Assembly: GCA_030167865.1 (NCBI GenBank)
Contig: JALAGF010005804.1
Location: forward strand, 1 to 52,135
DNA: 52,135 bases
Reading direction: 5' to 3'
Origin: Craspedostauros australis
Taxonomy: Eukaryota
Shown: positions 1 through 43,806 of the stretch, piece by piece
How the letters are laid out: every line of letters begins with the position of its first letter
Numbering within the stretch: the first letter of the stretch is position 1
Translations under genes and position numbers: made by a program
Notes under the pieces: model-generated
What the model saw: the letters and a program-made list of their open reading frames with translations, nothing else
Databases searched by the model: none
What the model was told of the DNA's origin: nothing

Positions 1-324
1 TCGCGCCAAAACGCACTCAACCAAGACCTTCCATCAGCAACCTGTGCGCTGAGAAGGTGCCTTGCACATCCAACGCATGGTCCGCTCGTGGGACCATGCC
101 CTAAGTGCTAAGCTTCGTACGGATGGCAACGCAACAAAGAAGTCGTTCGTCTATCTAAGTTCGTTCATGGAGCGTTATCCTGTCAAGGTCATCTTGCTGA
201 GCTCAACAAACTTCGGCCAGCGAAATTTTCCCAATCTCGCTCCATCTCGATCAACAGCTTCCTCTCTCTCTGTTTGCCCGCAATCACTCGCACAGCACCG
301 CGATACACCGCACTGAACCTCGCC

Positions 325-1266
325 ATGCATCCTGCACCTCAAGCAACTAATCATAAATCACTCGTTATCAGTTTACAAGAAATCCATCACCACAATACTT
401 ACGTGAATCCGCAACAACCAATACAACCAAGAACTGGAGTCGTTGGCTCTGAGGCGGCCGTGGATGGCACGGTTCCAACACAGTTCCCCACGAGGATCGT
501 TCCAACGAAGCACTCGAAGGCTTCGAAACGAGCCAAAGTACTTGTCGGTATTGCCGTGTTCGCCGCGATCGCCGCGAAGGTGACATCGGCGTACAACCCA
601 CAGTCACCATCGCAATCTGCGTTCGATGCACCTGCGAGGCCATTGCAGAACCAGGAGCCCGTCGCGTCAGTCGTGTTGCTACGCGTGGCCCTCAACGTTG
701 CGAACCGAAAATCCAAACGCTCCATCCTGTCCGTGCTGGATCAACTGGTCGATGCCGCCGACGTCGACAGCACCATGGGATTGCAGCAGCTCACTGCCGA
801 CATTGCGCTGGCAATCTCACGCAACAAATCGTCTATCGCCTCGGCCTACGCACAGACGGACGAATATGTCGACATGGAGGATGCCTACCGATCGTACGAC
901 AAGCTCTCCGTGGTGGAACGCAGCAAGTTCGATTCCGAATCACGCACCAAGTACACCAGCGAAGGTTACGCGCTCGATGCCGACACCAGATCCAAGTCGG
1001 AACCTGATCCGAATGCACCCAACGCAACCATGGCGGTGGTCACATTGATTCTTACCATCACGGGAGATCATTCCATCAAGGTCCCCAAAGACGAGATGCT
1101 CTCCACCGCGGACCTCGACAACCTCCTGGCCAAGATAGCATCAGAAGTGCGAGCTCCTGGTTGTTTGGAGGATGTGGAGATTCTTTGGACTCCAACAGAA
1201 CCTGACGAAACAATCACGAAGGATGAGGTGACAGCTGATTATCCCGACCTGAACATGTTGCTGTAG
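325..1266 (+). CDS. DUF1517 (FLAP1-like) domain protein
   Basis: The ORF from the first ATG at 325 contains a hydrophobic segment (VLVGIAVFAAIAAKV). It then has DUF1517-type motifs: VVLLRVALNV, GLQQLTADIALAISR, YDKLSVVERSKFDSES, MAVVTLIL, and the C-terminal VEILWTPTEPDETITKDEVTADYPDL. The start codon is uncertain. Confidence 0.8.
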   Translation: MHPAPQATNHKSLVISLQEIHHHNTYVNPQQPIQPRTGVVGSEAAVDGTVPTQFPTRIVPTKHSKASKRAKVLVGIAVFAAIAAKVTSAYNPQSPSQSAFDAPARPLQNQEPVASVVLLRVALNVANRKSKRSILSVLDQLVDAADVDSTMGLQQLTADIALAISRNKSSIASAYAQTDEYVDMEDAYRSYDKLSVVERSKFDSESRTKYTSEGYALDADTRSKSEPDPNAPNATMAVVTLILTITGDHSIKVPKDEMLSTADLDNLLAKIASEVRAPGCLEDVEILWTPTEPDETITKDEVTADYPDLNMLL

Positions 1267-2144: not shown

Positions 2145-5100
2145 TTAGATGCCTTGCTCGAGATCGATATCCTGCAACTCCAAGAAAGCTCCGTCCTTCG
2201 GAGATTCAAGGTCTTCCTCCTCCTCCGCTGTCAGGACGGCAGCAGGTGGGCTGGAGAAAGGACCGATGTTTTCGTACGTTGTGACATTCGGACTCCTTGG
2301 TCTCGCGATGTACACGGCGCCTTGCTTTGCTGCAGGCGGTTTCATTTCGGTCTCATCTGCTTCTCCGCCTGCCCCCGCCACGATGCCGCCTCTCTTCTGC
2401 TTCATGCGAGCCGGTGGGAATTCGAAAATGCTGGTGAGGCTGGTGTCTTCTTCAGACGATTTGTCGCCTTCGAAGGATCCCAGCAAGGACGCGGTGATGG
2501 CAGCGTCATGCTTTGGCTCCACCATGAAGAATCCATTCTGTTTCGTCAGGTGCTGCAGTAGCGATCCGACGGATGCTGTGAGGCTCCCGTCTGTCGACTT
2601 CGGTGAACCCAGACCATACTCGATGCTGTCGTAGTTGGATTCCTTGCTCTGCGTCGGATAGATGTTGAGCTGTTCGATTCTGGGCGACACAGTCGGTGTG
2701 ATTACCTCATCGAATGGGAACATCTTCTCCGAGGTGTCGAGTGGTGACACGACCTCGAAACCCTTGGACGTTCTGCGGCTCCTTGATTCTTTCGATCCAT
2801 CCGAAAGCAGGTTGGCAGGGAGGTAGACCTCGTCGGAATCCATCGTCGATGACCCCTCCACCTTCAGCAGCATAGTGTCGATGTCAGACAAGGGTTGTTC
2901 TTGTTGTTGTTGTTCTTGTTCTTGTTGTTGCTGCTGCTGTTCTTGTTGGTTTGGCGGGAGGGGAAGTGGAACCGGGAGTGGAAGTGGTGGCGACGGCGGC
3001 AGTGACAATGATGGTGGCTGCTCGATGTCAGGGCTGGGAAGTGCTGCTTCCACAGTGGTTCGCGGATCTCTCGTGGTGCTGGCATTGTTTGGTGTACTAG
3101 TGCCACCAAAGTCGAGTTGACTCATGGAGTCCTCGCTTGGCGTTCGCGTCTCCACGAAGATGTGAGGCTGTTCGATGTCTGCGTTGTAAGACGGGTTCGA
3201 CAATGAGCTTGGTGTCAACATGGGCATCATTTGTGTCGTTGAGAAGCCACCTGGTCCATGCATGGGGCTCGGAATCGGGCTGACTGGGCGGTTTGCTGGA
3301 TTCCGGAAAACAGTGATCAGGTTGAATGCTCGATCCGCTATGGATGACATCGTGGAGTCGTCGTTCGCTGGGCTGCTTGGCAGGGTGCCGAGCTGGCTTG
3401 TGGGAGTTGCGGCGCGTGGGGTGTGCAGATCGACGGTCGAGACGGAGTCTTCACTGCTGCTGACCGAGTATGGCTGCATCGTGAGCATCGGTGGCAATGC
3501 GCCAGCATCGATGAATCCGGAGAATTTCGTGAAGTGCGTGTCTTCGCTGCTGGCTTCTGAGATGGTGGAAAGCGCAGGTGCCGTGAAGAAGCCGTGGACT
3601 CTGGTCTCGCGGCACTGCGGACAGTTCGTCGAGAGGTATCGTGCTCCTTCACGCGTGAAATGGTAGTTGCCGTCGTGGTAGCTGTTCGGTGGATCGCCGG
3701 TGCCAACGGCGTAGACGAGACTGGTGTCCACAAAGTCAAACACTGACGGTTCTTGGTATGCCTCATTGTGCCTCTTGATGAGGAACAGGCCGATGCCTGT
3801 CAAGAAGGCGATTGGGAGGAAGCTGATCACGAAGATCAAACCGCCGCTGAAGCGGTTCTTGTCGCCCGTCCCACGTCGGTTGGATGAGTCGGGGTCATCC
3901 TGTTGGATGGAAGTATTTCAGTATTTCAGGTGAGCACAAGTGGTTGCGGTGGTGGTGGCGTTGGCGGCAGAAATAGAGCCGAAGAGGAGCACAAAAGAAA
4001 AAAACAATATTGTGGCGCGTGTGAGATGAGATGCACTGGGTGTTCATGGTGGTAGAAGGCAGCGCATCGAGGTGGCAGGCAAATCGATTCGTGGGCACTT
4101 ACACCATTTCTGTTGACGTTGTCGGGATCAATTCCTCCTCTTGTTGTGTTTCCGATTTCGGTGGGTTGGGAAGAGACCGTTGGGGTTGCTGTGGGTGCTT
4201 GCGTGTCATCCGCAGTCATTGTGGGAGACATGGTTGCACTTGTCGGAGCGGATGTTGATGGGGAACTGGCGGGAGATGCCGATGATGTTGGTCCAACAAC
4301 AGAAACAGACGGTGTCGATGTTGGTGGTGCTGTTGGCGACTCCGCGGGGCTCCCAGTGAAATCCGTGGGGTTGTTTGGTGCATTAACTGTCGTTGGTGCG
4401 CTTGTTGGTGCACTCGTTGGTGTCTGATTTCCGGATCCATTTCCTCCCGTTGTTGATGGCGATGCTGTTGGAGACGATGTTGTTGCGGGTGATGGTTGGT
4501 TTGGTTCATCCATTGCGGTTGGATTTTGGGTTGGAATGGCATCGTTCGGCATCTCCGAGCTGGTTGGAGAAGCCGTTGGCTGGTTTCCTGCAGACGACGA
4601 TGTTGGTTCTGAAGTTGCATCAGGAGATGCCGTGCCCACAGGAGTGGACGGAACCTCTGTTGGTGTGCCGGTGATGGTAACGGTGGTCATAGTTGGTGGC
4701 ATTGTTTGAGTTGGCACGCTAGTCGTGTCTGTTGCCATGGTGGGCGATTGGGGCACGGGTGTTGAAGTTGGCGGATTGGTGTCACCCAGCTGTGTTGGAA
4801 TAGGTGTGATCACAGATTGAGGTTCACCCGACGTCGTCGGCTCATTTTGAGATGGTGATGGAGCGACTCCATCAGTTGGCGCCGAGGTTCCAGATGGTGT
4901 ATTTGGGTTACCGTGTGCTGGAGGCGTCTGCAGAGCCGTCGGGGAAAGAGTTGGCGACACGGGGGCATCGCCAACTTGATCAGATGAGGATGGAGCAGGA
5001 GTGATTGATGTCGCTGTCGGTGCTGTTGTCGATACATTCGTATATCCAACGATCGTTGGTTCGCTTGTTGCTGGGGTACCTGGTTGATTTGTCTCCGTTG

Positions 5101-8100
5101 GCGTTGTTGGCACTGCAGGAGCTGGCGACAAGGTTGGAATAGCAGTTGGCGCGAATTGATCGGGTTGATCCGTCTGTGCCGAAACAACCGGGCTTGGTGA
5201 CAAAGTCGCAGAATCGGGCGACGGCGCATTTGGAGAACCGTCGGTTGTTGGTTGGTTGGTTCCTGTGCTCGCCCCCGCCGTTGGCGTTGGTTCCATGGTC
5301 GGGATGTTGGTTAGCGACGATGGTTGATCAGGAGTTGTTCCTGTTGTTTCGCTTGGCGATGGTGTCGGTGATTGCGCGATGTCACCTTCACTGGTCGGGA
5401 GGCCTGTGATAGTTGGTTCACCTGTTCCAGATGCTGATGATGGAGCCTTTGTTGGAGCACTTGTTGTCACCGTTAGTTCAGTTGGTTCAGTCTCTTCGCT
5501 TGGCGATGACGTTGGCGACTGCGCGATGTCACCTTCGCTGGTTGGAAGACCTGTGATAGTTGGCTCACCTGTTCCAGATGCTGATGATGGAGCCTTTGTT
5601 GGAGCACTTGTTGTCACCGTTAGTTCAGTTGGTTCAGTCTCTTCGCTTGGCGATGACGTCGGCGACTGCGCGATGTCACCTTCACTGGTTGGAAGACCTG
5701 TGATAGTTGGCTCGTCTGTTCCTGATGCTGATGATGGAGCCTTTGTTGGTGCACTTGTTGACACGGTGGGTTCAGTCGCTTCGCTTAGCGATGATGTCGG
5801 TGATTGCGTNNNNNNNNNNNNNNNNNNNNNNNNNNNNNNNNNNNNNNNNNNNNNNNNNNNNNNNNNNNNNNNNNNNNNNNNNNNNNNNNNNNNNNNNNNN
5901 NNNNNNNNNNNNNNNNNNNNNNNNNNNNNNNNNNNNNNNNNNNNNNNNNNNNNCCTTCACTGGTTGGAAGACCTGTGATAGTTGGCTCGTCTGTTCCTGA
6001 TGCTGATGATGGAGCCTTCGTTGGTGCATTGGTTGTCACGGTTGGTCCAGTCGCTTCGCTTGGTGATGATGTCGGCGATTGCGCGATGTCACCTTCGCTG
6101 GTCGGGAGGCCTGTGATAGTTGGCTCGTCTGTTCCTGATGCTGATGATGGAGCCTTCGTTGGTGCATTGGTTGTCGCAGTTGGTTCAGTGGGTTCAGTTG
6201 GCGATGGCGTCGGCGACTGCGCGATGTCACCTTCACTGGTTGGAAGACCTGTGATAGTTGGCTCGTCTGTTCCTGATGCTGATGATGGAGCCTTCGTTGG
6301 TGCATTGGTTGTCGCAGTTGGTTCAGTAGGCCCAGTTGTTTCGGTTGGCAATGACGTCGGCGATTGTGCGATATCACCTTCGCTGGTTGGAAGAGCTGTG
6401 ACAGTTGGTTCACCTGTTCCAGATGCTGATGATGGTGCCTTCGTTGGAGCACGCGTTGTCACAGTTGGTTCAGTTGGTTCAGTTGTTTCGGTTGGTGATG
6501 GCGTCGGCGATTGTGCGATGTCACCTTCGCTGGTCGGGAGGCCTGTGGTAGTTGGTTTGTCTGTTCCAGATGCTGATGATGGAGCCTTTGTTGGTGCATT
6601 GGTTGTCACGGTTGGTCCAGTCGCTTCGCTTGGTGATGACGTCGGCGACTGCGCGATGTCACCTTCGCTGGTCGGGAGGCCTGTGGTAGTTGGTTCACCT
6701 GTTCCAGATGCTGATGATGGAGCCTTTGTTGGTGCATTGGTTGTCAGGGTTGGTTCAGTGGGTTCAGTTGGCGATGGCGTCGGCGACTGCGCGATGTCAC
6801 CTTTACTGGTTGGAAGACCTGTGACAGTTGGTTCGTCTGTTCCAGATGCTGATGATGGAGCCTTTGTTGGTGCACTTGTTGTCACAGTTGGTTCAGCGGG
6901 TTCAGTTGGTGCCGCTGTGACGGTTGGTGCGGCTGTGCCGGTTGGTGAAGTTGGAGCCACAGGAGCCAAGGTTGGCATATTTGGCTGATTGGAGGTAGTT
7001 GGAGCTGCATTGTTCGGAGACGACGTGGGTGCGTTCGGTGCGACACTGAATCCAGCTGGCTGGGTAGTCGCGGTTGGTTGTTCGGTTCCAGCCTCCGACT
7101 CTGCCGTTGGAACATCAGTCGTTGCTGGAGATCCTGCTGGCGATTCTGCTGGAGATCCTGTTGATGAGTTTGGCTTCGTTGGAGCAGCTGGCTCCGCAGG
7201 AGACCCAGTGACGGTGGGCTCAGCCGTGACAGAGTCATCAGTTGGTTGGCTGATTGCTGTTGGTTCGCCTGTTCCTCCACCAATCCCAGTTTTAGGCCCT
7301 GCGTCCACGGATGGTGTTGGCGCGGTTGTGGATGTGGGGGCATCTACTGGCGCAGCAGGTTGGTCTGACGTCGTAGGCGCTGCTTTGGATGGAGCGGATG
7401 TTGGTGAAGTCCCCGTCGCATCATCACTTGTCGTTGGCTGACTGGTTCCAGCAGCCGGACCAGCTGTTGTTGTCACTGCTGTGGGCGATGCAGTCGTAGT
7501 AGGCGTTGCCGTAGGTGCGTCTTGATCATCAGTCAATTCAACTGGCTGAGAGGACGGTGTGGGGACACCTGTGTGTCCATCTGCCATGGTTGGCCGTCCT
7601 GTCGCTGTTGGTTCGCTTGTCCCCGCTGTCACGGTTGGTTCCGTGATCGTAGTTGGCGCTGTTGTTCCTGCATCCCCTCCTGTCATTCGAATAGTTGGGC
7701 TTTGTGTGCTTGCAACTGGTGGAATGGGCTGGGCTGAGCTCGTTGGGGCTGGGAGGGCTGCCGATGGCGACGGCGCTTCTGTGGATCCGTCCACGACTGT
7801 TGGCTGACCAGTTTCCACCGATGCATTTGTTCCTGACGTTGGCTGTTCTGTCTCGCTCCCAGTTCCAGACCCTGTCGCTGGACTCACACTCGGGGTTGCT
7901 TGCTGCGCTGGAGAAGGGGACGCCGTCACGGGCTGAACAGAAATGGTGGGGGCAGCAGTCGGGGATGGCCCTCCGGCCGTCGGGTTGTCACCATTCGTGG
8001 GATCACTTGGCGCAGATGGTGATGCAACTGCAGAAGTTGGTTGGCTGGTGTCGTCACTTTCAGCTGTTGGTTCAGTCGCCGTTGCTGGGGCAGCTGTTCC

Positions 8101-11100
8101 CGCTGGTTGGCCAGTTACAGGTCCCGCGGTAGACGGCGTGGCTGGAGCAGCAGCTGGTTGGCCGGTGGCATCATCTGTCGGTTGAGGTGCCGCGGTCGAT
8201 GGCGTACCTGGAGCAGACACTGGTTGGCCCGATGCGCTCGGCTCGGAGACGAAATCTGTTGGCGTTGGTGCGTTGGTTCCGCCTGTCGATGGGACGGTTG
8301 GCTGAGAAGGCAGGGTTGGAACAGCGGGGTTTGGCGACATAGTAGCTGAAGTTGGTGTAGAAACGGGCGCGTCGGCAACAGGAGGTATTTCTCTGTCAGT
8401 ACCTGTTGCAGTCGGCGAAGGCGATGGTGTCAACGTTGGTGCAAATGGTGCGGATGGCGCAGCTGGTGTGCTGGGGCTGGCTGGGGCGTTTGTGGCCTCT
8501 CCAGTTGTGGGCGCACCCTGCTGTACTGGCTGCAGCGTGGTTGGCGTTGTTGCCGCTGGAGATCGTGTCATCGTTGGTTCAGTTGTGAATGCGTTTCCTG
8601 TTGCTGATGTCGGCGCCGTTGTTGTCGTCGGCGATCCTGTTCCATTCTGTGGAGTTGGCAGCTGCGCTGATGGCTCAGCGACTGGGCTGTCCACTGTGGC
8701 TGGTTGCACGCTTGCGGCAGATGGATTGCTGGTGGAATCAATTCCTGTGGGTTCGCTTGTGATTTCGATAGCCGACGGGGAAGCCACAACGGTTGGTTGC
8801 AACGTCTCGCCTTGTGCCGCTGGCGATGGTGTCGCTGTGGGCGGAGGCGTTGTCCCATCGGCCGTTGGCTCACTGGTCGTGGCCGTTGGTGGCAACGGGG
8901 ATGCCGTAGTTGGCAACGAGGCTGCTGGCTGTGGTGAAGTAGTCAAGGCTGGCATCGTGGTTGGACTGGCTGGGTTTTGGTCGTCGCCGACGTTCGTTGG
9001 TGTAGATGTGGCTCCTGGTGTATTCGCGGAAGGTGCATCTGGCTGCGCGTCCGGCCTTCCTGTTGGCTGGATCGTCGTGGTTGCAGTTGGGCTTCCTGGT
9101 GACACGGGAGATGGTGACACGGTGGAAATGGACGCTGGTGATGGAGCGGCAGTACTTCCGACAGCAGTTACTGGTGCATTCGTTGCGTCAACAGAAGTTG
9201 GGGCCGATGTCGACGCCGTCTGCGAAGGCGTCGTTGGTACATCTGGAGATTGCCCTGTTGGAGTTGGCGCAAGGCTTGGTCCGTCGATTCCATCGGCTGT
9301 TGGTGCGATGATATCCACTGGTGAAGGCAACATGGTTGGGGCATCCAGTGGGACATCAGATGGAAGCCCGCCCTCACCCGTTGGCCCATTGCGCGTTGGC
9401 GACGCTGTTGTTGTTGCAGCCACCATGGTTGGCGCCGAAGTCGATCCTGCTGATGGGGTCGCAGCGCTGGGAGTACCAGCATCAGGAGTATTTGCTGGTT
9501 GTGCCGTCGATGTTGGCTGCTCCGTCCCCGAATTTCCTGTTGGAGTTCCTGGTTGGAAGGTTGGGGCGTTGCCACCGACAGGAGCTGCTGGAGTCGCTGT
9601 TGGGGCCGATGGCGACTGTGGGTCTTGCGCGGCTGGCGAAGTCGAAGGGCTGTCAGCGTTTGGTGCCGTTGTCGGAGATGGTCGTGTTGTTGTACTCGGT
9701 GTGGCTGGCGCTGACGTTGCCGCGGGCTGTTGTGAGATCGTTGGCCATGCAGTGTTTGACGGAGATAGGTCATTTGCTGTCGATGGTTGTTCAGTTGGCT
9801 CAACTGGTACCGCAGGGTTGCCAGCATCCGATGTTGGGGCTGGAGTCGTTGTTGATGGCGCTGCCTGTATGATCGGTTGAGATGAGATCGTCGGTGCAGA
9901 CGTTGGCGTTGGAAGGCCTCCATCTTGCGAAACTGTCGGTGCGTCCGTGAAATCGATTGTTGGAGATGCCGGTTGGTTCGTTTCAATTGCACCAGCGGGG
10001 GATGTTGTCGCAGAAACAGGCTGCGCTGTTGCTGTTGGCGAGGCAGGCGAGAGAGATGTTGTCCCTTCCGCCGTGGGGGTTGGCGCGGCTGTCGTTTGTG
10101 GGATTCCGTCTCCGACTGGCCGCATTGTTGCCACAGGCGTGCCGGGGGTTGCGGACGGAGATGCAGCCACGGGCTGAGGGGAAGAGGTCACTGTTGTCAT
10201 GGATGGCGAATCTGTCGCGGTGTCCGTCGCTGGAGCATCCGAAGGTGTTGGAAACTCAGTTTCTTCGTCATTACCTGGATCAGATGGAGCCTTGATTGAT
10301 GTCGGTTCTTCCGTCGCGCTCGACACAGTGGGTTCAGCCACCGACGCTGGTTGAGGTGAGATTGTGGCAGAGGTTGGTGAAGGTGTTGGTTCAATTTCTC
10401 CGCTTGGCGCATCCAGGTTGGTCGATGGAGCAGCTGTGACAGATGGCCCCAAAGCAGGTTGCGCCGTTGGTGTTGTTGCATCAGGGCTGTCTGTGGACGC
10501 TGGGGCCGTTGTTGCGGTTGGTTCCGAGGTCTGATCAGATGCTGGTTGGGTTGCGGGGCTCGCCGACGCGGTGGGTTCAGTCAACCCGCTTGGTGTTGCT
10601 GTCATGGTTGGTACCTCATTTGGTGGCTGCGAGTCACCGGTTGTTTCACTGGGGCTGCTGGTGGTAACTGGCGCGTTTCCTTCATCTGCGGATGTTGGCG
10701 GCTCTGTTCGAGTTGAATCCACGGGATCGAGACTCATCGTGGGTTGTGCGTACGTAGTGGGAGACGTGGTTGTGGTGATCGTGGGTGCGTCTGGACTTGC
10801 CGCAGGTGATGCTGACGATGCGACAGGCTGGGATGTCACGGATGGTGACGCATTTGGCTGGTCGGTTGGTGTGGAATCGTTCGATGGCTGTGGTGCGCGC
10901 GTTTCCGTTGGCGAGTATGTGCCGGTTGGACTGACTGATGGTTCTGCTGTGTTGGTTGCACCGGAACTCGTGGGACTCTCTTGTTCTCCGCCCAAACCAT
11001 CTGTCGGTGTCGGAGCAGTGGTTGACGTGGGAGGGATAGGACTTTGCGACGATGGAGAGGCAACCGGCTGAGATGTCTCCGATGGTGATGGTGTGTTGTT

Positions 11101-13237
11101 TTCTTGTCCGGCTGGCTGCGCAGAACCAGCAGGCATGGACATCGTTGGTGTCGTGGTCGTGGTCGAAGGCGATTCTGGCGTTTGAATGGTCGATGGTGCA
11201 TCTGTGGCAGTAGCAGATGGGGCTTGCGGCGCAGCTGCTGGTTGGCCTGATGCTGTTGGTGCGACGGGGCTTGGCGACGCGGTTAGAGCTGGAGACGACA
11301 CCGGACCGGCCGAAGCTGGCGCAGTTGTCGTCCCAATGGGTAGGGGTGATGAAGTCGGTGCAGTTGGTGTGGCTGGCGCATTCGGCGTCGCAACATTCGG
11401 TGAGGCCGTTGGTCCCATTCCCATGTTCAAATCTGTTGGTTCACCTGTGGCTGCGGGCTCGCCGCTGCCCGTTCCTGATGGAGTGTCCGGATCCGATGCG
11501 ACAGGTGTTGGCGATGGTGTTGGTGTTGGTGTTGGTGTTGGTGTTGGTGTTGGTGTTGGTGTTGGTGTTGGCGTGGTTGTGGGCGGTGCTGTTGCTTCTG
11601 CTGCAGGTGACGCATCCGATGCTGTTGTTGGCATGGCTGTAGTGTCGGTACTTGTCCCGACAGCAGTGTTTGCGTTCGTTGCCATTTCCGTGGGTTGGTC
11701 GGTTGCATCATTTGTGGTTGTGGATGGTGCCGATGCTTCGTCTGTCGGTTGCGCTGTGCTCGTGGGCGTGGGCGTGGACGTTGGTGCATCCAAGTTGGGT
11801 GATTGTGCAGGCGAGTCAGTTGGAGACGATTGTGTCGGCGTTCCGGCGTCAGCAGCTGATGGTTGCCAAGTTGAAGAATCGTCCGGATTAGTGGATGGCG
11901 CAGCGGTGATGATCGTTGGCGCCGACGTCGGAATTTCATGTCTGCCTCCAATCGTCGGCTCATCGTCATTTGCATTGCTCGGAGCGTCGGTATCCATCGT
12001 TGGCATGCTCGTCGTCGTTTGTTGCTGCCATCCTACACGGAAGCTGTCGATATCTGCAGTCATCCATCTCACGTTACTGATTGTTGGGAATGCGCTGCCA
12101 TTCAGCAATTCTCCGCTGTCCATGACATCCTCGATCGATTGAACGAGCGTGTCATGCAGGCTGCTGATGTTGCTCGCATCATCTGTCGCTGCGAATATCG
12201 TCATCTGTCCAAAGAAAACGGCGCATTCCGCGCTGGAATGGTCATAGTTGCATGTCACTGTGAAGTGGATCATGTCGAAATGGTGCGGTTTGGAATCAAT
12301 GGCGGATGCACCATCGGTATGGGAGGTGTCAGATCATCGTTCATTGTGTTGCAAAGCAGGCATGTTCAATCCGAATTCGATTCTCAGATGCTTGGGATTG
12401 CACAGCTGTGCACATCAATGGACATCATCGTGTGTGCGTTTGCGCGCTATCAAGCGTGCTTTGTACTTACAATCGGATGCCGTATACGGTCCGGAGTTGA
12501 TGGTTTCCACGTTGAGACGTCTGGCTTCGCCTTGCAGCACTCGTCGTCGTTCCGTCCAGAGATCTGCTCAAAAAATGGAAGAAGTGGCCGTGTGTATGGT
12601 TGGAGGTCGTTGCGAGGAGGTGAGAGAATGAGAAGCGTGCATTGTGTGAGTCCGAGGGTTCGTACAGTTTCATTTTCACAGCAGGAACCTTGCTGGTTTC
12701 ACGCGCCGGCGGTGAGATGTGGAAGTGCGAGTTGATCGTACCTGTTTCGTGATGCCTCAGTCTCCTTCTCGAGGTGTTGCCGTTGCTGTCGTCGCACAGT
12801 TGCAATGTTCCTTGGACGATCTCAAACAGCGTATCTCCCAATGCCTGCAGTTCCGATGGCTGCACTGGCTGCGAAGATTCGACGGCGAAATAGTATTCGA
12901 CGAGTGCGATTTGCACGGATGATTGACAGTTGGTAGTGTCGAAGCCTTGAACGCTGCAATTGTTGGTGTCGGTGATGCCGTTGTTTTCGTCTTCAGACGA
13001 AGTCGATGGCTCGCCAACCCAAAATTCATCGAATGGCATGTGCTTGTTTGTCAGCACCAGCTGTCTGTTGATGCTGTGAAGTGCGGATTTTCTTTCATCG
13101 GTATTACCGCTCGAGCTGCCGCTGTCATTCCTAATGCGGATCGATTGCTGCTGTTCTTGAACTGGGTGGGCAGAGCTGATGACCAGACTCGACGATGCAC
13201 CCACGACGAGAAGGTGGAGTGCGAGTGATAGCCTCAT
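2145..13237 (-). CDS. Giant type I membrane mucin-like (Pro/Thr/Ser-rich) protein, 4 exons, about 3,500 aa
   Basis: Predicted exons are 13237-12742, 12563-12471, 12257-4103 (spanning the N gap at 5810-5953) and 3899-2145. Donors are GTACGA, GTAAGT and GTAAGT, each paired with a CAG acceptor; phases 1, 1 and 0 join the separate ORFs in frame. It has a signal peptide (MRLSLALHLLVVGASSSLVISSA), a Cys-containing head domain, more than 2,500 aa of PTS stalk, one TM helix (LIFVISFLPIAFLTGIGLFLI followed by KRH) and a tail of about 540 aa. Confidence 0.8.
5355..6890 (-). repeat. Coding VNTR of 138-147 nt units (46-49 aa), at least 10 copies
   Basis: The unit TTNAPTKAPSSASGTDEPTITGLPTSEGDIAQSPTPSPTEPTEPT occurs 7 times on one side of the N gap and 3 times on the other. 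Copies are near-identical at DNA level. Confidence 0.95.
11515..11571 (-). repeat. (GGTGTT)n hexamer encoding a (Thr-Pro)n tract
   Basis: About 9 perfect hexamer copies inside the mucin exon. Confidence 0.9.
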
Positions 13238-15548: not shown

Positions 15549-17234
15549 ATGCTTCGCAACAGAGGATCGACGGCAGGCCTGCCAACAAGCAGCGCAACTG
15601 GACTGAACTACGGAGGCGGCGACATGTACGCCGGTCACAGCAACGTCCCGCACGCCCATGGTGGATACCAGCAATCGTACGGCGGCTACAGCAACGGCGG
15701 CGGCGGCAATACCGGAGGCAGCTACGGCTACGCCGCCGGTGGGATGGCCGCAGCAGCCAGCGCCATGCACATGAGCAGCGACAGCTCCAAGGCCAGAAGA
15801 CGGTCCTCCACGGGCAGCGTCACGAGCCTCGGATCCGGCGCCTCGGGATCCATGGTGGGCATGGCCATGGCCGTCGTGGGACTCTTCTTCTTCGTCACGA
15901 CGCTGTACTACAGATCCGTCTCCAACGGCATCCTGTCCGGCCTCGACGTCAAGTCCAAGGCCGCCGCCATGGACCTCATCCACAGCCTCAAGCGCGACGT
16001 CGACAAGTACCGCACGCAGTCCAAGGAGCAGAAGCGCGTGGCGCATGATCGCTACTCGGCGCAGATCACCAACCTGCAGGAGGAGAAGAAGCGTCTGCAG
16101 CGCGAGCGCGATGAATTCGAAAGGGCGCATGCCAACGGCGGCGGCGACCGCTCCGATCTCGAGAAGGAGATCCACCGATTGCAGGGACGCGAGGACGCCT
16201 TCATGTCCCAGGCCAACGCCCTCAAGAATTCGATCCGAAAGGAGTCCGAGCGCAAGATTTTGGAGCGGTATGTTCTCAATTGTCATCTGATTCTCTTGCT
16301 TTTCTTGGTTGCCTTGGGTTTCTTGCTTGTCTTGCCTGTCTTGCCATGATCCATCGCGGTAGCGGATTGGAGAAGTTCTTGGCCCTTCTCAACTGTTCCA
16401 CGGCTTTGCGCAAGTACTCACGACTGATCATGCGATCGCCTCTCACCTGTGCTATGTATCCACCGCGCCACATCACTCGTCTCTGCTCCACAATCGCCCT
16501 GCACCATCCCAACGCCGCTTTACAGATTCGGAGATGGCCCGCACAAGGTCGAGATGATCTTCGTCATGCCGGAGGATGAAACGGAGACCAGGCACAGACT
16601 CATTGTCGAGACGGCGCCATACAAGCTCGTTCCACACGCCGTCCACCTCTTCCTGGAGCAGGTCGCGCACGGACTCTGGGATCACACCTACATCTACCTC
16701 AACGGACCACACATCTTGCAGATCGGACCCCAGAACATGGATGTCTACCACTACGAGCCAAGCGAAAACGACGACGGACGCGGACCGCAGCTGCACAAGT
16801 TCGAGGAGATGGGCCTCAAGCACCTCGCCTTCCCAGACTACCACCCAGACTTCCCACACCAGCCATGGACCCTGGGCTTCAGCGGCAGACCAGGAGGTCC
16901 GGACATCTACATCAACAAGCTCGACAACAGCGTCGACCACGGTCCAGGCGGCCAGTACCAGCACGTCCTGCACGAGGAGGGAGACTCCTGTTTCGGAAAG
17001 ATCGTCGAGGGACACGAGCACATCGCTCAGGCCTTCCAGGGATCAACCTACGGCGACGGATCCGAATGGCACTACTTCTTCACCTCGCCCATCGAGATCG
17101 TCCAGGCGCGTGTCCTCAACTCCATCCAACCAATCCCAGAGAGCATGTTGACGGACCAGCAACCCAGCCACCATGCCCACAACGGCGACATCAAGCCGCA
17201 GATGCCAAAGACCGAGCACATGGCCACGCCTTAG
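15549..17234 (+). CDS. Membrane-anchored coiled-coil plus cyclophilin-like domain protein, 2 exons
   Basis: Exons 15549-16267 and 16526-17234 are joined by a GTATGT...TACAG phase 2 intron, giving ILER/FGDGPHKVE. The protein has a Gly/Tyr-rich N-terminus, a TM segment (MAMAVVGLFFFVTTLYY) and a coiled coil. It then has the algal cyclophilin-like motifs PHAVHLFLEQV, FPHQPWTLGFSGRPGGPDIYIN and DSCFGKIVEG. Strong GC3 bias. Confidence 0.8.
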
Positions 17235-20335: not shown

Positions 20336-21376
20336 TCAAGCCGCGTCTTCAACGATCTCAACCCCAACACCAATTTTGTGGAAATGCTGTTTGAGTGACA
20401 TGAGGGAAGCGTCGTCGTCGTCGTCGTTGCTGCTGCTGTTCGTGATGCTGGTTTCGGTGCTTTGGATGCTGAGTCTCGAGAAGGCGCGGGCGGCCTCGTC
20501 CGCTGCTCGGATCGTATCGTTTGTCGTAAGTGCTGATGTCGAAGAGCGCGTTGTGTGCGAGAGCGAGAATGTCGGCGTCTGTGGTAGCGGCGATGATGCT
20601 GTGGATAGAAGGCTGAGACGACTGGCTGTCGCATAGTTGGAATCCATATCGAGGGGATGATCGATCGAGATCAAGCTGCTACTGCTGCTGCGGCTGCCTT
20701 GCGTGCTGTGCAAGCTCGATCTTCGTGCTTCATTGCGATTTCTCCATCGTCTGATCTCCATCTGAAGGCAGTGATTCGACGTCAGATGAGACACGCGCAA
20801 TGGCCGGCCAGTGACGGGACATTCCTCCTTGTTCATGTCCAACCATTCCATGATGGCCCTTCGTTCGAAGTTGACGCCCGCCCGTGTTGTGACGGGATCT
20901 CTCATCACTTCCTTTGTCAATGGGCACATGTACTCCTGCGGACAGCCAAGGTTGAGCAGGGTCATGTTGTGGCCGTCTGTCATGGCGGTGCTGCAGGATC
21001 CTGATCGTGTTGAGGAACACGACGCAACCCTCTCCATCTTGCGGCAGAAGTTGATCATGGCGACGACCTGATACTCCTTGTACCACGGCTGCTTCCTCCT
21101 CCATGACTTGATGGCCCGGTGCAGCTCGTAGTCTGGCTTGAGGCAGGACGCATCGAGCAAGGTCTTCGTTACAGGACACCACACGCTGCCGCTCTTGATC
21201 CATTCCAGAACGGCAGCCTCCTCGAAGTGCACGCCCTCATTGGAGACGACGGGTGTCTTCATCAGCTTCTTGCTGATGGGGCACACGAACTTTCTCGGCA
21301 CCTTCATGCGGAGCTTTTTGGTAGGGCTGGGCATCTTCGGGATGATTTCCAGCGGGTGCTCACATTGTGGAACCAT
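20336..21376 (-). CDS. Tandem double U-box protein (putative E3 ubiquitin ligase)
   Basis: Two U-box motifs: VPRKFVCPISKKLMKTPV...FEEAAVLEWI...CPVTK...LKPDYELHRAIKSW and CPQEYMCPLTKEVMRDPV...FERRAIMEWL...CPVTG...NHCLQMEIRRW. A Ser-rich tail follows. The start is the first plausible ATG. Confidence 0.85.
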   Translation of the reverse strand: MVPQCEHPLEIIPKMPSPTKKLRMKVPRKFVCPISKKLMKTPVVSNEGVHFEEAAVLEWIKSGSVWCPVTKTLLDASCLKPDYELHRAIKSWRRKQPWYKEYQVVAMINFCRKMERVASCSSTRSGSCSTAMTDGHNMTLLNLGCPQEYMCPLTKEVMRDPVTTRAGVNFERRAIMEWLDMNKEECPVTGRPLRVSHLTSNHCLQMEIRRWRNRNEARRSSLHSTQGSRSSSSSLISIDHPLDMDSNYATASRLSLLSTASSPLPQTPTFSLSHTTRSSTSALTTNDTIRAADEAARAFSRLSIQSTETSITNSSSNDDDDDASLMSLKQHFHKIGVGVEIVEDAA

Positions 21377-23873
21377 CGGTCTGATTTGGTTGAGTGAACA
21401 ACGCTGTTGCGTACTGGTGAGTGTTTGTGAGTGTTTGCACGAGTGGAGGAGGTGGTTTGGTCGAAGTGATGACACTGCTACTGCTACTGCTGCCGCTGCT
21501 GCTGCTGGCGTTGTGGCGTGATCAACTCCGTTGGTTGTATGATAGAATGCGACAGAATGCTCACGTGAGAGTGAGTCGCAGTCCACTGCTCGAAGCGAAT
21601 GGGAGATACGGGGAGAGTACTGTGTGGAGAAGAGCAGAGGAGAGACTCTTCGTGTTGTGAGTGGCAGTGTTGTCTTGCGCTGTACTCGAATTCGTGCTTG
21701 TGCTCGCACTTGTGCTCGTAATTGTTACTGGAATTGTGTGGATGATAGTTGCTGTTGCTGTTGTTGCTGTCTTTGCGGTTTGTGACCTGCGGGAGATACT
21801 GTCACGGTTCGACGAGAACGAACAAAGAAACCGAGGGAGAGTCGCGGACGGCAACAAACACGGAGGTTTGTGCGTGATTTGTATGGTGAGTGATACCGAG
21901 AGGTCGGCATGATCGCGCGATAGTCATGGAACCGTGGCTTCGTGTTCCTATCCTGCAATTGAGAGCGCAAGGTGGTCACGTCTGTGTCGGGTGCCCCACG
22001 TTGAGTGCATGTTGAGCACACGCAGATCGTTTGTACCAACATCTGCCATCACGGCACGAGTCTTGGAGGCGGAGACGTGACCTGGACATAACAAACCCTT
22101 CCGGTGAACTGTTAAATGTCCGGAATTGTGCTGTCGCATTGGCATGTTCTCCATAATTGACAAAGCCAAAGAACAGCCTCGTTGACAACCAATCCTCACG
22201 TGACCACGAGTTGGCTCCGCCATTCTCACTTTTTTGCCCTCTTCGGTTGTGCCCAAGCACAACGATTTCCACAATAAAACGGCGGGGCAGGCTCATTCTG
22301 ACGTTGTATTTCGTTCTTTGCGAGATGGTTGGCATTGCGAGACCACACCTCAAAGTCGCAAGTGCAGGGTGAGATGTCGTTATCTGTCGAGCACCAGAGA
22401 ACATAATGCTGTATCTGATGGCCGTTGCATGTGGACTCCAGTTTCATCGTATGTCTGCCACATCACGACTTTAGCTCCCGCGTCAACATTCTTTGAGAGA
22501 ACCGAAGATGGCAAACAATGACCTCTTTGGCTTGATTGACCTCAACTGAGTTCGGTTTGGATTGTCGGGGCGTTTGCAATGTTGGCAGACGAGCGCCTCA
22601 CAAATAAGCCAAGCAAATGGATCTCTCAAAGGAGCATACATGCGGGCACAATGAAGAGTGCCCTAACTCGCACTCTACAATGCAGTATGCAGAGAAGCAG
22701 CTGAGTCTATGTTCATCTCTCATCGTCGCACGGGTACGCGTTATCCGAACCAGAGCATAAAAATCCTCACACCAATTCCACTCTGGAATCAACGGTTTCT
22801 CGCTGCGCAGGGCCTTCAACGTCTTTTGTTTCGTTTCGTTTCGTCTTCAAGTATTGCCGTTCGCAAATGCCCGTGCTTGACACCACGTACAATACCGTGC
22901 ATGCGGCATTTCCATATGTATGGCAGTGGTGGCGCTTCAGAGAACGGAATGGTCAACGAAAGTGAGAGAGCGCACAGGTACGATCTGGAGCGGTGCCAGA
23001 TATAATACTATTCGTAACGATCAAAGATTGGCACCAACGCAAACTCTTTTCGTCAGTGCGATGGAGAGAATCATCGATCTCTTCCCTTCACAGCTTTCTG
23101 TGGTCAGCGAGACACGCACTTGGTTTCCCTTGCGACTGCCATGCTTGTTTCCAGTACTCCACCCGCTGCTCTCACTCATTCGTCCTGTCCGCCCGCCTCT
23201 GATGCGGAGGTGCTGCATGATTGTATTTGTACGCTGTCGATGCCGCGCACAATCGTAGCTGCGTGCAAGACGAGGGCCCAACAACAAACGATGGCCGCAT
23301 GCTTTCGCGCGTTGCACCACACACGTGATGGCCTGCCTCGCGCCACCTTGTTCACGGACCAATTTGCACGCAGCGGGAGACGAACGCCGAGAGAACAATC
23401 GCAGAGCTTTGCAAGCGTAGACACGCCAACGCCAAACTATCGCCTGTGGCATGAACGGTTCGCTGCTCCAAACCTGCGTTTGCTTCCGGTAGAAGAGCGA
23501 TCCCCGCCAAGTAAGGAAACCGGAGGGCAATCGGCTGTTTCATCAGCAGCCACGCGGGTTATGACTCGGCGTTTGTGTCCTTGTGACTGTTTGTTTCTCT
23601 GCCGTTCGTGACTGTCTGTTTGATGTTTGCGGAATTAATAGAAATGAAACTGACAAAACAATCGACCTCCACGATTCCACAACAGCAACAATATAGTACG
23701 ACTACTACGATTCCGTCTATTCAGATGAATCGATCAACTTGAGCCTAACAAAGCTCGGATGCGAAGCGAACCCAAAATGGCGTCTATGACAGTACCGTGC
23801 CACACAAGACACACATGTAGACTTTTCCAACATCATAGTTGTACTTCAAAACTTAGTTCATTATTCTACCCAC

Positions 23874-28296: not shown

Positions 28297-29124
28297 CTAA
28301 TCATCCTCATCCAGCTCGTTGAGGGCAAGAGTCGATGATGTGTCCGGTGACATGCCATCGAACAGGCCCGGTGGGATTCCGCTGGCTCCAGCATCACCTG
28401 CGCCTCCCATCATGGACTGCATGAGGTCGTTCGAATCCATGTTCTCGTACATCTTGGCGGCGGCCTGCATGGCCTCCCTCCACGCCACTGGATCATTCAG
28501 CAATTCCTCCATGCCAGGCATGCTCCCCATCATGGACTTCAGCATGGGATTGCTCAGGATCATCTGACGCGATTGCTCCAGCCGTTCCGGATCGTTCATC
28601 ATCTCCTGGAACATGGGCGATTTCATGAGGGTGGACATTTGTTCCATGGATTCGGAGAGACCGGCACCGCCAGCACCACCGCCCATCTGCTCGACCATCT
28701 CATCCAGCTTGCTCGTGTCGATGCCCGATTCGGCCAGCTTCTCCTTCATCTGGTCCATCAACGCATCCGTTCCCGAAGCTGGTGCCGCAGCCGCGGTTGT
28801 GCTCTTGGATTTGGACTTGCCGCTCGATTTCTTTTTGCTGCTGGGCACCAAATTGAGCTGATCGCCATCCTGCACACCGACGTCGCTGAGGACATCCGAC
28901 TTGGACAGGCTCTTGCCGCTGAACAGCACGCGGCCCTGCTGCTTGGGGTCGACGCCACTGACATCGGAGAGGCGTTCCTGCAGCTCCTGCACGGTGGCGA
29001 CGCCGTCGGGGATTTCGTACTTCTTGCCGCGCAAGGTCACGGAGAGGTTGGTGATGGGCGACGCCGCCAACGCAACGAACGTGGCGAAGCCGGACAGGAT
29101 GGTGCAAGCGAATGCGGTCTTCAT
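28297..29124 (-). CDS. Ubiquilin/Dsk2-like protein (UBL + STI1) with N-terminal signal peptide
   Basis: Signal peptide MKTAFACTILSGFATFVALA. UBL domain: TVQELQERLSDVSGVDPKQQGRVLFSGKSL...LSDVGVQDGDQLNLV. Met-rich STI1 motifs: MKSPMFQEMMNDPE, NPMLKSMM and LLNDPVAWRE. No C-terminal UBA. Confidence 0.85.
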   Translation of the reverse strand: MKTAFACTILSGFATFVALAASPITNLSVTLRGKKYEIPDGVATVQELQERLSDVSGVDPKQQGRVLFSGKSLSKSDVLSDVGVQDGDQLNLVPSSKKKSSGKSKSKSTTAAAAPASGTDALMDQMKEKLAESGIDTSKLDEMVEQMGGGAGGAGLSESMEQMSTLMKSPMFQEMMNDPERLEQSRQMILSNPMLKSMMGSMPGMEELLNDPVAWREAMQAAAKMYENMDSNDLMQSMMGGAGDAGASGIPPGLFDGMSPDTSSTLALNELDEDD

Positions 29125-30127
29125 GGTGTGCTGCGTGTGCTGTGTGTATAGTGGGCTGTGTGTATGGTACTGTTGTGCTACTTGTCCAAAGGATGGATCA
29201 GTCGATGGTTTGTGTGTTGGTGCGATTGCGTTCGGTGTCAGCAGTGGTGGGTGGGATACTCTGGTTGCAGTTCTCGATTGTGTGTGTGTTTGAGACCATC
29301 CCAGTTTCACCCAGCGTGACACCGCGTAGCCCTGTTGATGGATTCACATGACGCGTGGAACTGGAGATCAACTGACGACAGCCAGAAATTGCATTGATGG
29401 GAAGATACCGTGACCAAAACAACAACGACAACAATGCTCCACAATCAAGTCATGGATCAATAGGCAGCTTGAGGAGGAGGATAGTTCGGACGGGAGGCCA
29501 CAATCACTCGTCTACTCCACAACAAATGAGCGATCTGTAGGTATTGCTCCTGCGAAAACAACATGGCTATATGATATTGGCAGCGTCGGATCGATGGCGT
29601 GTTTCTCGGTAGAATAGCTTAGCCTTTATTTTACGATACATTGTTGTGGAGTGGGTGCGTGAATCGTATTATCATACTGCACTCGCAGTTGCTGCAATAC
29701 AAGTACTCATGCGCAAGTGGTTGGTTGCTGTGCAGATCATTCTCAAATGCTCGAGAAGGATGTCGAAGTGCTCTCTTCCACTCGCATGCTGATAGGAAAG
29801 AGATTCGCAGCTCCGGACATGGTTGTACGGAGAGCTTCACTTGTCCTGTGTGGCACGTTCGGATGAATCTCGACCAATGGCGTATCATCGTCGTCGTCGT
29901 CGTCGTGGGCATGCAGAGCAGAAAAAAAGTGGACGCCGTCTACGCCACTGCTTGCGCTTGATCTGTGTTCGCCCTTGCTTCCTCCATTCCTCGCCTCTTC
30001 CTCATAGCAAGTAGGAGCAACACATTGACGCGAAGACGGCGATTGCGCATCGGAGCCATTCACAGAAGCACACCACCGCACAGCACCGCACAACCTTCCA
30101 AAGTCGCACACCACATGGAAACAACCT

Positions 30128-30841
30128 TTACATGTATCCCTGGTATCCGAACAAGTTGTCGTAAATGCCGCGTCCGTTCACCTGTTCCTGCGCCATCATG
30201 CCGAAGAACGCAATCATGGCAAGCCGTCCATGAGACAGCTCCTTGGACTGCATCGTCTTCCATTCGTATGCATCCCTTGGTTTCAAGCCCAACGGGTCGA
30301 AACCGAGATCACCGGGCGCGAACGACGCACGCAACAATCCCGGCCGATCGATGGGAACATTGCCGGGCTCCACGAAAGCGATCTGCGCACGGATCAGCTC
30401 GGCGTTGGCAATCACGAACAGCAATCCCAGCCAGAAAGGGACCGGCACCTGCTCGGGATGCGTGATGGCGGGACCGGAGACACCGAACAGGACGGATCGC
30501 GGTGTCGCCACCGCCTCACCCGCCAGCACACCCACGACGGCCAGCATGGCCACGCGGCCGTGCGTGATCTCAGCCTCGCGGTATCGTTTCAAGGTGTCGG
30601 CATCGGCCTGTCGTGAGAATCCGAGCGGATCGAAGAAACCCAGCGGCGCAATTGCTCCCGGCAAGCCTCTGGCATCATCGAACGCCGATGCTCGCAGCCG
30701 ACATTCTGACGTCGACGATGGGGCAGATCCGTGCGGTGCGACGAAGGCTGAGGCGGAACCGGTGGTGGCGGCGGCGGCTGTCAACGTTGCGAGAGACACG
30801 GCAGCGAGCAAGGCCACGGAAGAAGCGATGGCGGTCTTCAT
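30128..30841 (-). CDS. LHCX: Divergent LHCX/LI818-type light-harvesting protein
   Basis: ASAFVAP cleavage motif, then GFFDPLG, LKRYREAEITHGRVAMLA, SGPAITH, PGDLGFDPLGLKP and KELSHGRLAM. Confidence 0.9.
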   Translation of the reverse strand: MKTAIASSVALLAAVSLATLTAAAATTGSASAFVAPHGSAPSSTSECRLRASAFDDARGLPGAIAPLGFFDPLGFSRQADADTLKRYREAEITHGRVAMLAVVGVLAGEAVATPRSVLFGVSGPAITHPEQVPVPFWLGLLFVIANAELIRAQIAFVEPGNVPIDRPGLLRASFAPGDLGFDPLGLKPRDAYEWKTMQSKELSHGRLAMIAFFGMMAQEQVNGRGIYDNLFGYQGYM

Positions 30842-31019
30842 TGTCACGCTGGCACAGTTTCTATTGCTGATGCTGTGGATGGTGATGTCCCTGGTGTCCG
30901 TGCAGGTGGCGTTGTTGGCAGCGTCTGCGTTTCTGATGGAATACGTCGAGAAGTCTCAAGAGTGGTGGCGGGTTCGCGGGTGAGACGACTGATCGGCGGT
31001 CGTGTCGGAGCAGGATGAT

Positions 31020-43532: not shown

Positions 43533-43806
43533 TTCACATGGCTAAACACTATCCGTTGTTTGGTTCTGATTTACCATCAACCCAGAACCGTTCATCTTTC
43601 CATTTCCTCACGATACCACAACGGAACAGAGCAGAGCAAAGTTGGGGACTCGATTACACTGAGGAACCGGCCGGGCAAGTACTCATGCGGCCACACACAA
43701 CAAGGAATATCAGCCCCCGCAGACGCTAAGAACTGTACCCTCCCATCATTGAAGAGTAACAGCGCTGCAGCAAACATCACCTCTCATCGACTCAGCGCCC
43801 ACTAAC

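Follow-up and report, generated by a model that had tools for sequence, protein, structure and literature searches.

The DNA analysed here, referred to as the window, is the whole 52,135-nucleotide (nt) stretch of contig JALAGF010005804.1 (assembly GCA_030167865.1) of the diatom Craspedostauros australis. Between positions 2145 and 13237 its reverse strand holds four long open reading frames (ORFs), at 12467-13237, 5785-12273, 3926-5764 and 2145-3839. An earlier note, made without database searches, had proposed that these ORFs belong to one gene for a giant mucin with a single transmembrane (TM) helix, and that this protein might serve as an adhesion or gliding linker. Read from its sequence alone, the locus is one gene that encodes a type I, single-pass, mucin-like giant; that it is a four-exon gene occupying 2145-13237 on the reverse strand, and that its product belongs to a diatom protein family, is in our judgement highly probable. 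Its features are as follows (aa, amino acids; PTS, rich in proline, threonine and serine):

12742..13237, reverse strand: exon 1 (496 nt), with the ATG at 13237, a signal-peptide-like N-terminus, an S/N/E-rich linker that is not conserved, and the first half of a head domain
12741..12564, reverse strand: intron 1 (178 nt, GTACGA..CAG), the splicing of which shifts the frame (178 = 59x3+1)
12471..12563, reverse strand: exon 2 (93 nt, 31 aa), with a basic loop, a conserved A-RRL-N/S-V/I site and the strand with which the second head half begins
12470..12258, reverse strand: intron 2 (213 nt, GTAAGT..CAG)
4103..12257, reverse strand: exon 3 (8,155 positions including 144 N), with the second head half (to ~12022) and the PTS stalk (~11961 to 4103)
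4102..3900, reverse strand: intron 3 (203 nt, GTAAGT..CAG, phase 0)
2145..3899, reverse strand: exon 4 (584 aa plus stop), with a juxtamembrane segment, the TM helix and the cytosolic tail
13169-13237, reverse strand: signal-peptide-like N-terminus, aa 1-23 (MRLSLALHLLVVGASSSLVISSA), hydrophobic at aa 2-23 by hydropathy
12022..12967, reverse strand: head domain, aa ~91-275, split by introns 1 and 2; family-conserved alpha/beta with conserved Cys
5348..6909, reverse strand: tandem array of 138/147-bp units (46/49 aa, APTKAPSSASGT...), ten visible copies, split by the assembly gap
5810-5953, no strand: assembly gap, 144 N inside the tandem array; to judge by its flanks, it lacks 7 nt plus whole units
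3777..3845, reverse strand: predicted TM helix, aa ~2933-2957 (GGLIFVISFLPIAFLTGIGLFLI), followed by KRH; hydropathy, aligned with the family TM helix
3603..3707, reverse strand: cytosolic motif 1, VGTGDPPNSYHDGNYHFTREGARYLSTNCPQCRET, with the family-invariant residues D, H, G, H, S, C and C
2148..3602, reverse strand: distal tail (~485 aa), low-complexity, S/P/T/E-rich and not conserved in the family

The ATG at 13237 is the earliest in-frame ATG downstream of the preceding stop. All three introns fall where the earlier note had placed them, have canonical GT..AG ends and are compatible in phase: exons 1 and 2 together leave one base, which is completed by the first two bases of exon 3, and the end of exon 3 and the start of exon 4 both lie on a codon boundary. 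The two 5' junctions are also backed by homology with a family of proteins described below, the members of which are numbered here with the prefix P. Alignments of the spliced head with P0027, P0008 and P0013 run uninterrupted over the exon 1/2 junction (residues 165/166) and the exon 2/3 junction (residues 196/197). In a MAFFT multiple alignment the exon-2 peptide (…RRRVLQGEARRLNVETINSGPYTASD) aligns to the family sequence …RRLSLEEARRLSIVSFSxSPxD, so that the frame of exon 2 after splicing of intron 1 agrees with that of the homologues, and a Cys conserved in the family alignment lies three residues past junction 2. Both 5' junctions are supported because the family proteins align continuously over them. 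Between 5954 and 12257, 2,100 of the 2,101 codons are free of stops, whereas in 200 mononucleotide shuffles the longest stop-free run averaged 199 codons and never exceeded 388; the open frame is therefore not a product of base composition. Outside the assembly gap, ~3,450 codons contain no stop.

The earlier note had let introns alone join the ORFs. The three introns stand, but the break between the 2,162-codon ORF (5785-12273) and the ORF at 3926-5764 is the N run and no intron. If the Ns are translated as they stand, the reading frame is shifted and then meets 23 stops. We aligned 60 nt from each flank of the gap to complete neighbouring repeat units, taking references both upstream and downstream, and by both references the flanks lie 7 nt apart within the repeat unit. 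With 7 nt plus whole 138/147-nt units missing, the 2-nt overhang before the gap is closed and both sides fall into one frame. The coded residues (2,297 + 1,153) bring the protein to 3,498 positions, 48 of them X. As whole repeat units may be missing in the gap, this length is a lower bound (at least ~3,450 residues); the ~3,500 aa given in the earlier note is thus a lower-bound estimate and not a directly read length. The window comes from a scaffolded draft, in which repeat-rich genes such as the mucin gene are likely to be collapsed. The 46/49-residue tandem array at the end of the stalk is young.

If intron 3 were retained, the frame would stay open for another 59 codons, up to a stop at 3926-3928, and the mucin would be made without its anchor and be secreted. 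Whether this one intron is spliced could in this way toggle between a tethered and a released protein.

The order of parts that had been proposed for the protein, i.e. signal peptide, head, PTS stalk of more than 2,500 aa, one TM helix and a tail of ~540 aa, was recovered throughout; the signal peptide and the TM helix were called by hydropathy and family comparison. Behind the signal peptide the unconserved linker reaches ~aa 90, and the head that follows contains five Cys and ends at ~aa 275-295. The stalk (aa 296-2914) comprises 2,619 positions including the 48 X, and consists of 21.5% T, 18.9% P, 14.0% S and 13.3% A, i.e. 54% P+T+S. It has no Cys, 222 D/E against 30 K/R, and 14 aromatic residues, and its last quarter contains the ten visible 46/49-residue units. 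The stalk is presumably O-glycosylated and extended. The TM helix is a single 19-residue hydropathy peak of 2.45 and the sole hydrophobic segment besides the N-terminus. Inside the membrane the tail runs for 541 aa: directly after motif 1 there is a conserved GFFTAPALSTISE, and beyond it come NPSY, a run of PPSPPLPLPVPLPLPP, one of Q/E and, last, an acidic C-terminus.

Several smaller features were seen along the protein. At the start of the stalk a hexanucleotide repeat of 11.3 copies (11504-11571, reverse strand) encodes a (PT)n run. In the distal tail the short motifs, i.e. NPSY, the PPSLSLPPSPPLPLPVPLPLPP run and the Q/E run (QQEQQQQQQEQEQQQQEQ, a 3-nt repeat at 2894-2948), are not kept in relatives. 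The head has RXL sites at aa 58, 158, 173 and 180, one of them at a family-conserved position. The conserved basic A-RRL-S/N-[IV] site reads ARRLNV at aa 179, in exon 2, and a site of the A-RRL-S[IV] type occurs in 19 of 31 family members (those of at least 390 aa that start with M). The A-RRL site is similar to the RXL sites at which diatom wall proteins are processed, and cleavage there could split the head in two.

The relatives of the protein were found with phmmer, in a search of 1.84 billion representatives with the 584-aa product of exon 4. There were 78 matches at E <= 1e-3, including 34 at E <= 1e-10, and 77 of the 78 cover query residues ~8-130, i.e. the juxtamembrane segment, the TM helix and the first ~90 cytosolic residues. 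The exception, P0074 (a 146-aa fragment), matches query residues 267-375 and is the only match beyond tail residue ~130 when the distal tail is compared with all of the fetched proteins. A profile search returned 50 proteins (E 1e-30 to 3e-82), new or overlapping with the phmmer set. Four of these 50 carry an organism name, two being from Cylindrotheca closterium, one from Nitzschia inconspicua (P0079) and one from a Bacillariaceae metagenome-assembled genome; all four are raphid Bacillariaceae.

In full-length members such as P0008 (463 aa), P0013 (508 aa) and P0069 (836 aa), a signal peptide leads into an N-terminal domain, and after a short spacer come the TM helix and two cytosolic motifs. 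Motif 1 (consensus GTGDPPxSFHxGxYHYTxxGxRYLSTNCxxCxET) is ~35 residues long and lies ~22 residues inside the membrane, and motif 2 has the consensus DVHxCxSATCxxC. The residues D, H, G, H, S, C and C of motif 1 are invariant in a 68-row alignment, and the same seven are again among the 14 columns without variation when 85 rows, motif 1 of the window included, are aligned. In the window protein the TM helix is followed by motif 1 within ~25 residues, with all seven of these residues in place. No frame of the window contains a second copy of motif 1 or of motif 2.

The head shows the same relationship. As a query against the 78 tail-derived matches it found 10 of the 78 at a full-sequence E <= 1e-4, the best being P0027 (query 110-274, 9.7e-14) and P0008 (106-263, 1.3e-9), with P0013 aligned over 111-244. 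In the family the head is a Cys-containing alpha/beta domain of ~200 residues, and the window protein, aligned with 14 members, has the same two-half alpha/beta head with the conserved Cys behind its hydropathy-called signal peptide. Because proteins found by the tail carry the same N-terminal head, the head and the TM/tail region form one family architecture. The earlier proposal of one gene for a single-pass mucin is therefore borne out, the two ends of that architecture being linked here by an open frame.

Two members carry motif 1 in another setting. In P0047 (803 aa) it has no preceding hydrophobic segment, i.e. this is a soluble form, which fits a self-standing cytosolic module, and in P0004 (246 aa) it occurs twice in tandem.

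Searches for relatives outside the family gave only sub-threshold or unrelated matches. Four pieces of the window gene had no Pfam match at cut-off (Trypsin 15.8 bits against a cut-off of 20.6, TFIIA 12.4 against 36.2), Pfam found no family common to 84 members, and the best match of the profile in the PDB had an E of 0.2. A literature search for the motif string GTGDPP gave one match, which was unrelated. The best ESM Atlas scores, 0.85 and 0.87, fell short of the 0.9 line; a single Bacillariophyta cluster and the MUC1-like rows, with MUC1 clusters at 0.77-0.84, serve as leads only. The family is thus one with no Pfam or PDB relative and is not described in the searched literature.

The window protein differs from the rest of the family mainly in its spacer. 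The head-to-membrane spacer was measured in the 74 other members in which the end of the head, the TM helix and motif 1 can all be recognised; it has a median of 39 and a range of 17-441 residues there, whereas that of the window protein is 2,673 residues. A median of 39 aa places the heads of the other members at the membrane. The spacer has grown from this family median to at least 2,673 residues and is now a Cys-free, acidic, Thr/Pro/Ser/Ala-rich stalk. The tail has changed as well. Motif 2 is present in 80 of the 96 rows in which motif 1 is preceded by 70 or more residues, and the window protein is one of the 16 without it, as are P0001, P0002 and P0005; as the nearest relatives also lack motif 2, its absence is a subfamily trait and no bar to family membership. 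The window tail runs ~488 residues past motif 1, against ~80-160 in other rows, with longer tails in P0047 (362 residues), P0001 (354), P0005 (257) and P0002 (199). The window protein has lost motif 2 and gained a disordered tail of ~430 residues. In a quick tree it groups with P0001, P0002, P0005 and P0007 (SH-like approximate likelihood ratio test, SH-aLRT, 91; branch not starred), and P0001 and P0005 have long acidic spacers together with their long tails.

We modelled P0008 and the window residues after the TM helix with AlphaFold2, using alignments of 84 and 85 rows respectively. In the P0008 model the head consists of two beta-alpha units, with predicted local distance difference test (pLDDT) values mostly of 80-95 over residues ~50-130 and ~170-260 and one 10-residue block at 69; the loop between them (133-168), which contains the conserved basic RRL site, has a pLDDT below 50. 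The TM helix comprises residues 299-323, and the 10-residue blocks of motif 1 have pLDDT values of 82-92. In the window model the core of motif 1 (pLDDT 86-92) is a beta-hairpin (strands 31-33 and 36-38) plus a helix (51-59), with both His in the hairpin and the CxxC at the start of the helix, and past motif 1 the pLDDT falls to 50-55. Given the invariance of these residues and the geometry class of the model, the His/His/Cys/Cys (H/H/C/C) set is probably a small zinc-binding knuckle. The Foldseek output had some ferredoxin-like, Notch LNR-HD and zinc-ribbon-like rows, which were too weak and were discarded.

In our reading, to which we give a probability of about 0.55, the protein is a mucin tethered to the membrane in type I orientation, and its conserved cytosolic module docks a partner. 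The signal peptide would send the head and stalk outside, and dense O-glycosylation would stiffen the stalk so that it holds the head ~0.65-0.9 micrometre off the membrane (2,619 residues x 2.5-3.5 Angstrom), i.e. through or past the silica wall. An extension of 2.5 Angstrom per residue is the lower value. The upper value, 3.5 Angstrom per residue, is that applied to CaTrailin4 (10.1101/2023.03.06.531300). The result would be a coat or tether, anchored in the membrane, hydrated and negatively charged, that controls surface contacts, while the invariant H/H/C/C module would dock a conserved cytosolic partner, so that a tether lying outside could be held or read from inside. The module is read as a common docking point because it is constant across paralogues of very different reach. 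The use as a plasma-membrane surface coat or tether, when set against the other uses discussed below, is a tentative choice.

Several points weigh against this reading. The signal peptide, the TM helix and the topology rest on hydropathy and family analogy, splicing, expression and gap closure are all inferred, and as assembled the frame is interrupted at the N run. Exon 1 alone matched none of 559 candidates of 290-2,000 aa at E <= 1e-3. The longest other member has 849 aa, i.e. the giant form has no orthologue to show its conservation. In Foldseek comparisons with the PDB, the P0008 and window motif models had no matches at E <= 1e-3 (best E for the motif, 1.5), and zinc binding rests on the four invariant residues and the small hairpin-plus-helix model. 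Finally, the protein may lie in the silica deposition vesicle or another compartment rather than in the plasma membrane.

The known systems that the protein resembles differ from it in ways that help to place it. CaTrailin4 and Ca5609 of C. australis (10.1101/2023.03.06.531300) are, like the window protein, extracellular PTS giants that are partly repetitive and expected to be O-glycosylated and extended. As described there they have no anchor and carry CAA or Cys-containing repeat domains between their PTS regions; this comparison with the window protein is by description only. The window protein, in contrast, has a TM helix, a 541-aa tail, no Pfam domain and no stalk Cys, i.e. it shows neither the CAA domain (PF20597) nor Cys repeats, and it is anchored. 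The silicalemma-associated proteins (SAPs), as described in PMC5647440 and PMC10503012, are likewise type I proteins with a signal peptide, an RXL site, a low-complexity lumenal part, a TM helix and, close to it on the inside, a short conserved cytosolic segment of 23-28 residues, which is proposed there to meet cytosolic or cytoskeletal partners. By the same descriptions they have 213-310 aa, no folded head and a cytosolic part of 58-68 aa, and it is by description that they are set apart here. The window protein has their signal peptide, RXL site and TM helix, but at ~3,500 aa, with a tail of 541 aa, it is far outside their size range, and its lumenal region is Thr/Pro-rich (S 14%) with a folded head.

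Outside the diatoms, animal MUC1, MUC4 and MUC16 and yeast Msb2 and Hkr1 cross the membrane once and combine a cytosolic tail with a very long PTS domain that is O-glycosylated and includes tandem repeats. The window protein has this long PTS-rich domain and its tandem repeats. In short family members the folded domain lies next to the membrane, as does the SEA domain of MUC1, whereas the head of the window protein is at the far end of the stalk. No SEA domain was found by Pfam in the window pieces or the 84 members, nor among the listed Foldseek matches, in which Notch2 LNR-HD, a non-significant match, has rank 20 with a probability of 0.07. The likeness to the animal and yeast tethered mucins is one of convergent architecture and not of homology. 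In Chlamydomonas, the ciliary coat glycoprotein FMG1B/FMG1A is a giant mucin-like surface protein of a gliding alga that was long deemed to be the element transmitting force across the membrane (PMC12021028). It is N-glycosylated with folded structural repeats according to the same paper, in which the double mutant glides and is more adhesive, pointing to an anti-adhesive role. Compared by description, FMG1B is both the closest functional precedent and a caution, as such proteins may regulate adhesion rather than transmit force. Apicomplexan TRAP and MIC2 are type I adhesins with vWA/TSR ectodomains and an acidic tail, with a Trp near the C-terminus, that is linked to an actomyosin motor. Pfam found no vWA or TSR domain in the window protein, the C-terminus of which is acidic but lacks the Trp, and its stalk is a mucin where TRAP and MIC2 have an array of folded domains.

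The role proposed in the earlier note, an adhesion or gliding linker, is not evidenced by these results. The conserved parts of the family are the head and the cytosolic H/H/C/C motif and not the stalk. In such a role the PTS stalk would pass through the raphe and act as, or hold, an adhesive strand, and the tail would couple to raphe-associated actomyosin; we consider this improbable. The architecture, i.e. a strand outside, one TM helix and a long cytosolic tail, is the one required, and the transmembrane complex is still presented as hypothetical in papers from 2024-2026 (PMC11420354, PMC13056149). Giant PTS proteins are components of Craspedostauros trails, though without an anchor (10.1101/2023.03.06.531300), and retention of intron 3 would yield a releasable form that lacks the anchor too. 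On the other hand, Pfam found no adhesive (CAA, vWA, GDPH, TSR) or cytoskeleton-binding domain in the window pieces and 84 members, and the distal tail is not conserved. The conserved parts are common to members in which the head lies 17-60 residues from the membrane, unable to reach the raphe slit. The tails of raphid-specific myosins are described in PMC11420354 as coiled coil only, with no extra domain, so there is no obvious docking logic. That all four organism-named members are raphid Bacillariaceae is in keeping with a gliding role, but four named members of 50 are too few to show raphid restriction, and FMG1B, for long the analogous candidate in Chlamydomonas, is reported to be dispensable for gliding (PMC12021028). 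Still more doubtful is a fuller scheme in which the protein would fill the vacant transmembrane place in the raphid adhesion-motility complex, with the PTS strand running through the raphe, the zinc-knuckle-like motif as an actomyosin handle (direct or through an adaptor), RRL cleavage or retention of intron 3 releasing the strand into the trail, and the short-spacer paralogues as the ancestral membrane-proximal form. A concrete candidate with a defined 35-residue handle is nevertheless valuable because the transmembrane part of the gliding machinery is still hypothetical; it can be tagged and deleted, which makes the transmembrane gliding question testable.

An unlikely alternative places the protein in the cell wall or the silica deposition vesicle. 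It would span the silicalemma as a type I protein, its lumenal head and stalk would enter the wall or organic casing after cleavage of the anchor, and its cytosolic motif would position it against the cytoskeleton while the wall forms, as has been proposed for SAPs and Silicanin-1. The layout, from the signal peptide and RXL site through a low-complexity lumenal region and TM helix to a short conserved cytosolic segment, is like that of the SAPs (PMC5647440, PMC10503012), type I proteins of the vesicle membrane are described as shedding their anchor and remaining in the silica (10.1101/2021.09.18.460806), and the window head has the four RXL sites given above, one of them family-conserved. The SAPs are, however, described as proteins of 213-310 aa with an SG-rich, unfolded N-terminal part and a C-terminal region of 58-68 aa, whereas the family head is folded; SAP is also reported absent, by BLASTp, from Nitzschia inconspicua (PMC10503012), in which the family has P0079. 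No match named as Thalassiosira or Cyclotella is found among the 50 profile matches, of which four are organism-named. Silica-forming proteins are generally Ser/Lys-rich, unlike the window stalk. The stalk, being Thr/Pro-rich, acidic and Lys-poor, likewise differs from the Ser/Gly-rich lumenal regions described for the SAPs (PMC5647440, PMC10503012). A low probability also attaches to a signalling mucin or wall-stress sensor, in which the stalk would be a rigid probe and strain, or shedding at the RRL site, would be reported through the H/H/C/C motif. This idea is drawn entirely by analogy. The yeast single-pass mucin sensors Msb2/Hkr1 and Wsc1/Mid2 are the analogues. The single pass, the long Ser/Thr/Pro rod and the sizeable cytosolic tail would suit such a sensor, as would the conserved basic site in the low-confidence loop between the head halves (P0008 133-168, pLDDT < 50) and a cytosolic module that is conserved over a multi-paralogue family while the reach of the ectodomain varies. 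Against it, Pfam found no kinase, G-protein or other signalling domain in the window pieces and 84 members, and the head lies at the far end of the rod and not beside the membrane. It is very unlikely, lastly, that the locus is not one functional gene, i.e. that it is a secreted mucin plus a separate TM gene, a pseudogene or a mis-assembly at the gap. The frame is broken at 5810-5953 as assembled, the gene model was read from DNA alone, and an unspliced intron 3 would terminate the mucin at 3926. The head and the TM/motif region are nonetheless on the same strand with an open frame between them, the gap flanks are in register, and the ~3,450 codons outside the gap have no stop. For exon 4 there is neither an upstream ATG nor a separate signal peptide, and the first Met that it encodes is far beyond the TM helix; P0008, P0013 and P0069 have the TM helix and motif behind a signal peptide and head, for which reasons two separate genes are very unlikely.

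As a membrane-tethered mucin, the protein would join two known kinds, the secreted anchor-less PTS giants and the small type I vesicle proteins with a cytosolic stub: a stalk of wall-spanning length would be fixed in the membrane with a conserved cytosolic module behind it. The gene also exposes a family that is absent from Pfam, the PDB and the searched literature. Even as a coat or wall protein it would, to our knowledge, be the first membrane-anchored diatom mucin, none having appeared in a literature search judged on titles and the openings of abstracts, and it would give a clear example of how a spacer expanded in a family of receptor-like proteins.

Five neighbours of the mucin gene in the window are ordinary eukaryotic genes and functionally unlinked to it:

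112-1266, forward strand: DUF1517 protein, convergent with the mucin gene
20336-21724, reverse strand: U-box protein, an ordinary eukaryotic gene
28297-29343, reverse strand: ubiquilin-like protein, an ordinary eukaryotic gene
30128-30955, reverse strand: chlorophyll-binding LHC/FCP-type protein, an ordinary eukaryotic gene
46868-47611, reverse strand: CSN8/PSMD8-type protein, an ordinary eukaryotic gene

PTS-rich windows of 100 aa occur elsewhere on the forward strand, at 15826, 16576-16801, 32027 and 40576-40651. A second mucin gene at 15826 and 16576-16801 was considered and rejected, these being off-frame readings of G+C-rich DNA. Further gaps or ambiguous bases lie at 32378-32427, 49300-49349 and 51432-51481, with single Ns near 36643-36685 and 51857-51866. 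An ORF at 50897-52135 on the reverse strand, which runs off the end of the window, contains a segment of ~95 residues twice, the copies flanking the 50-N run at 51432-51481; this may be a true duplication or an assembly artefact. Two tandem subtilase (Peptidase_S8) genes lie on the forward strand at 38515-41007 and 43753-46112, each preceded by an ORF of ~320-346 aa that is probably its N-terminal part.

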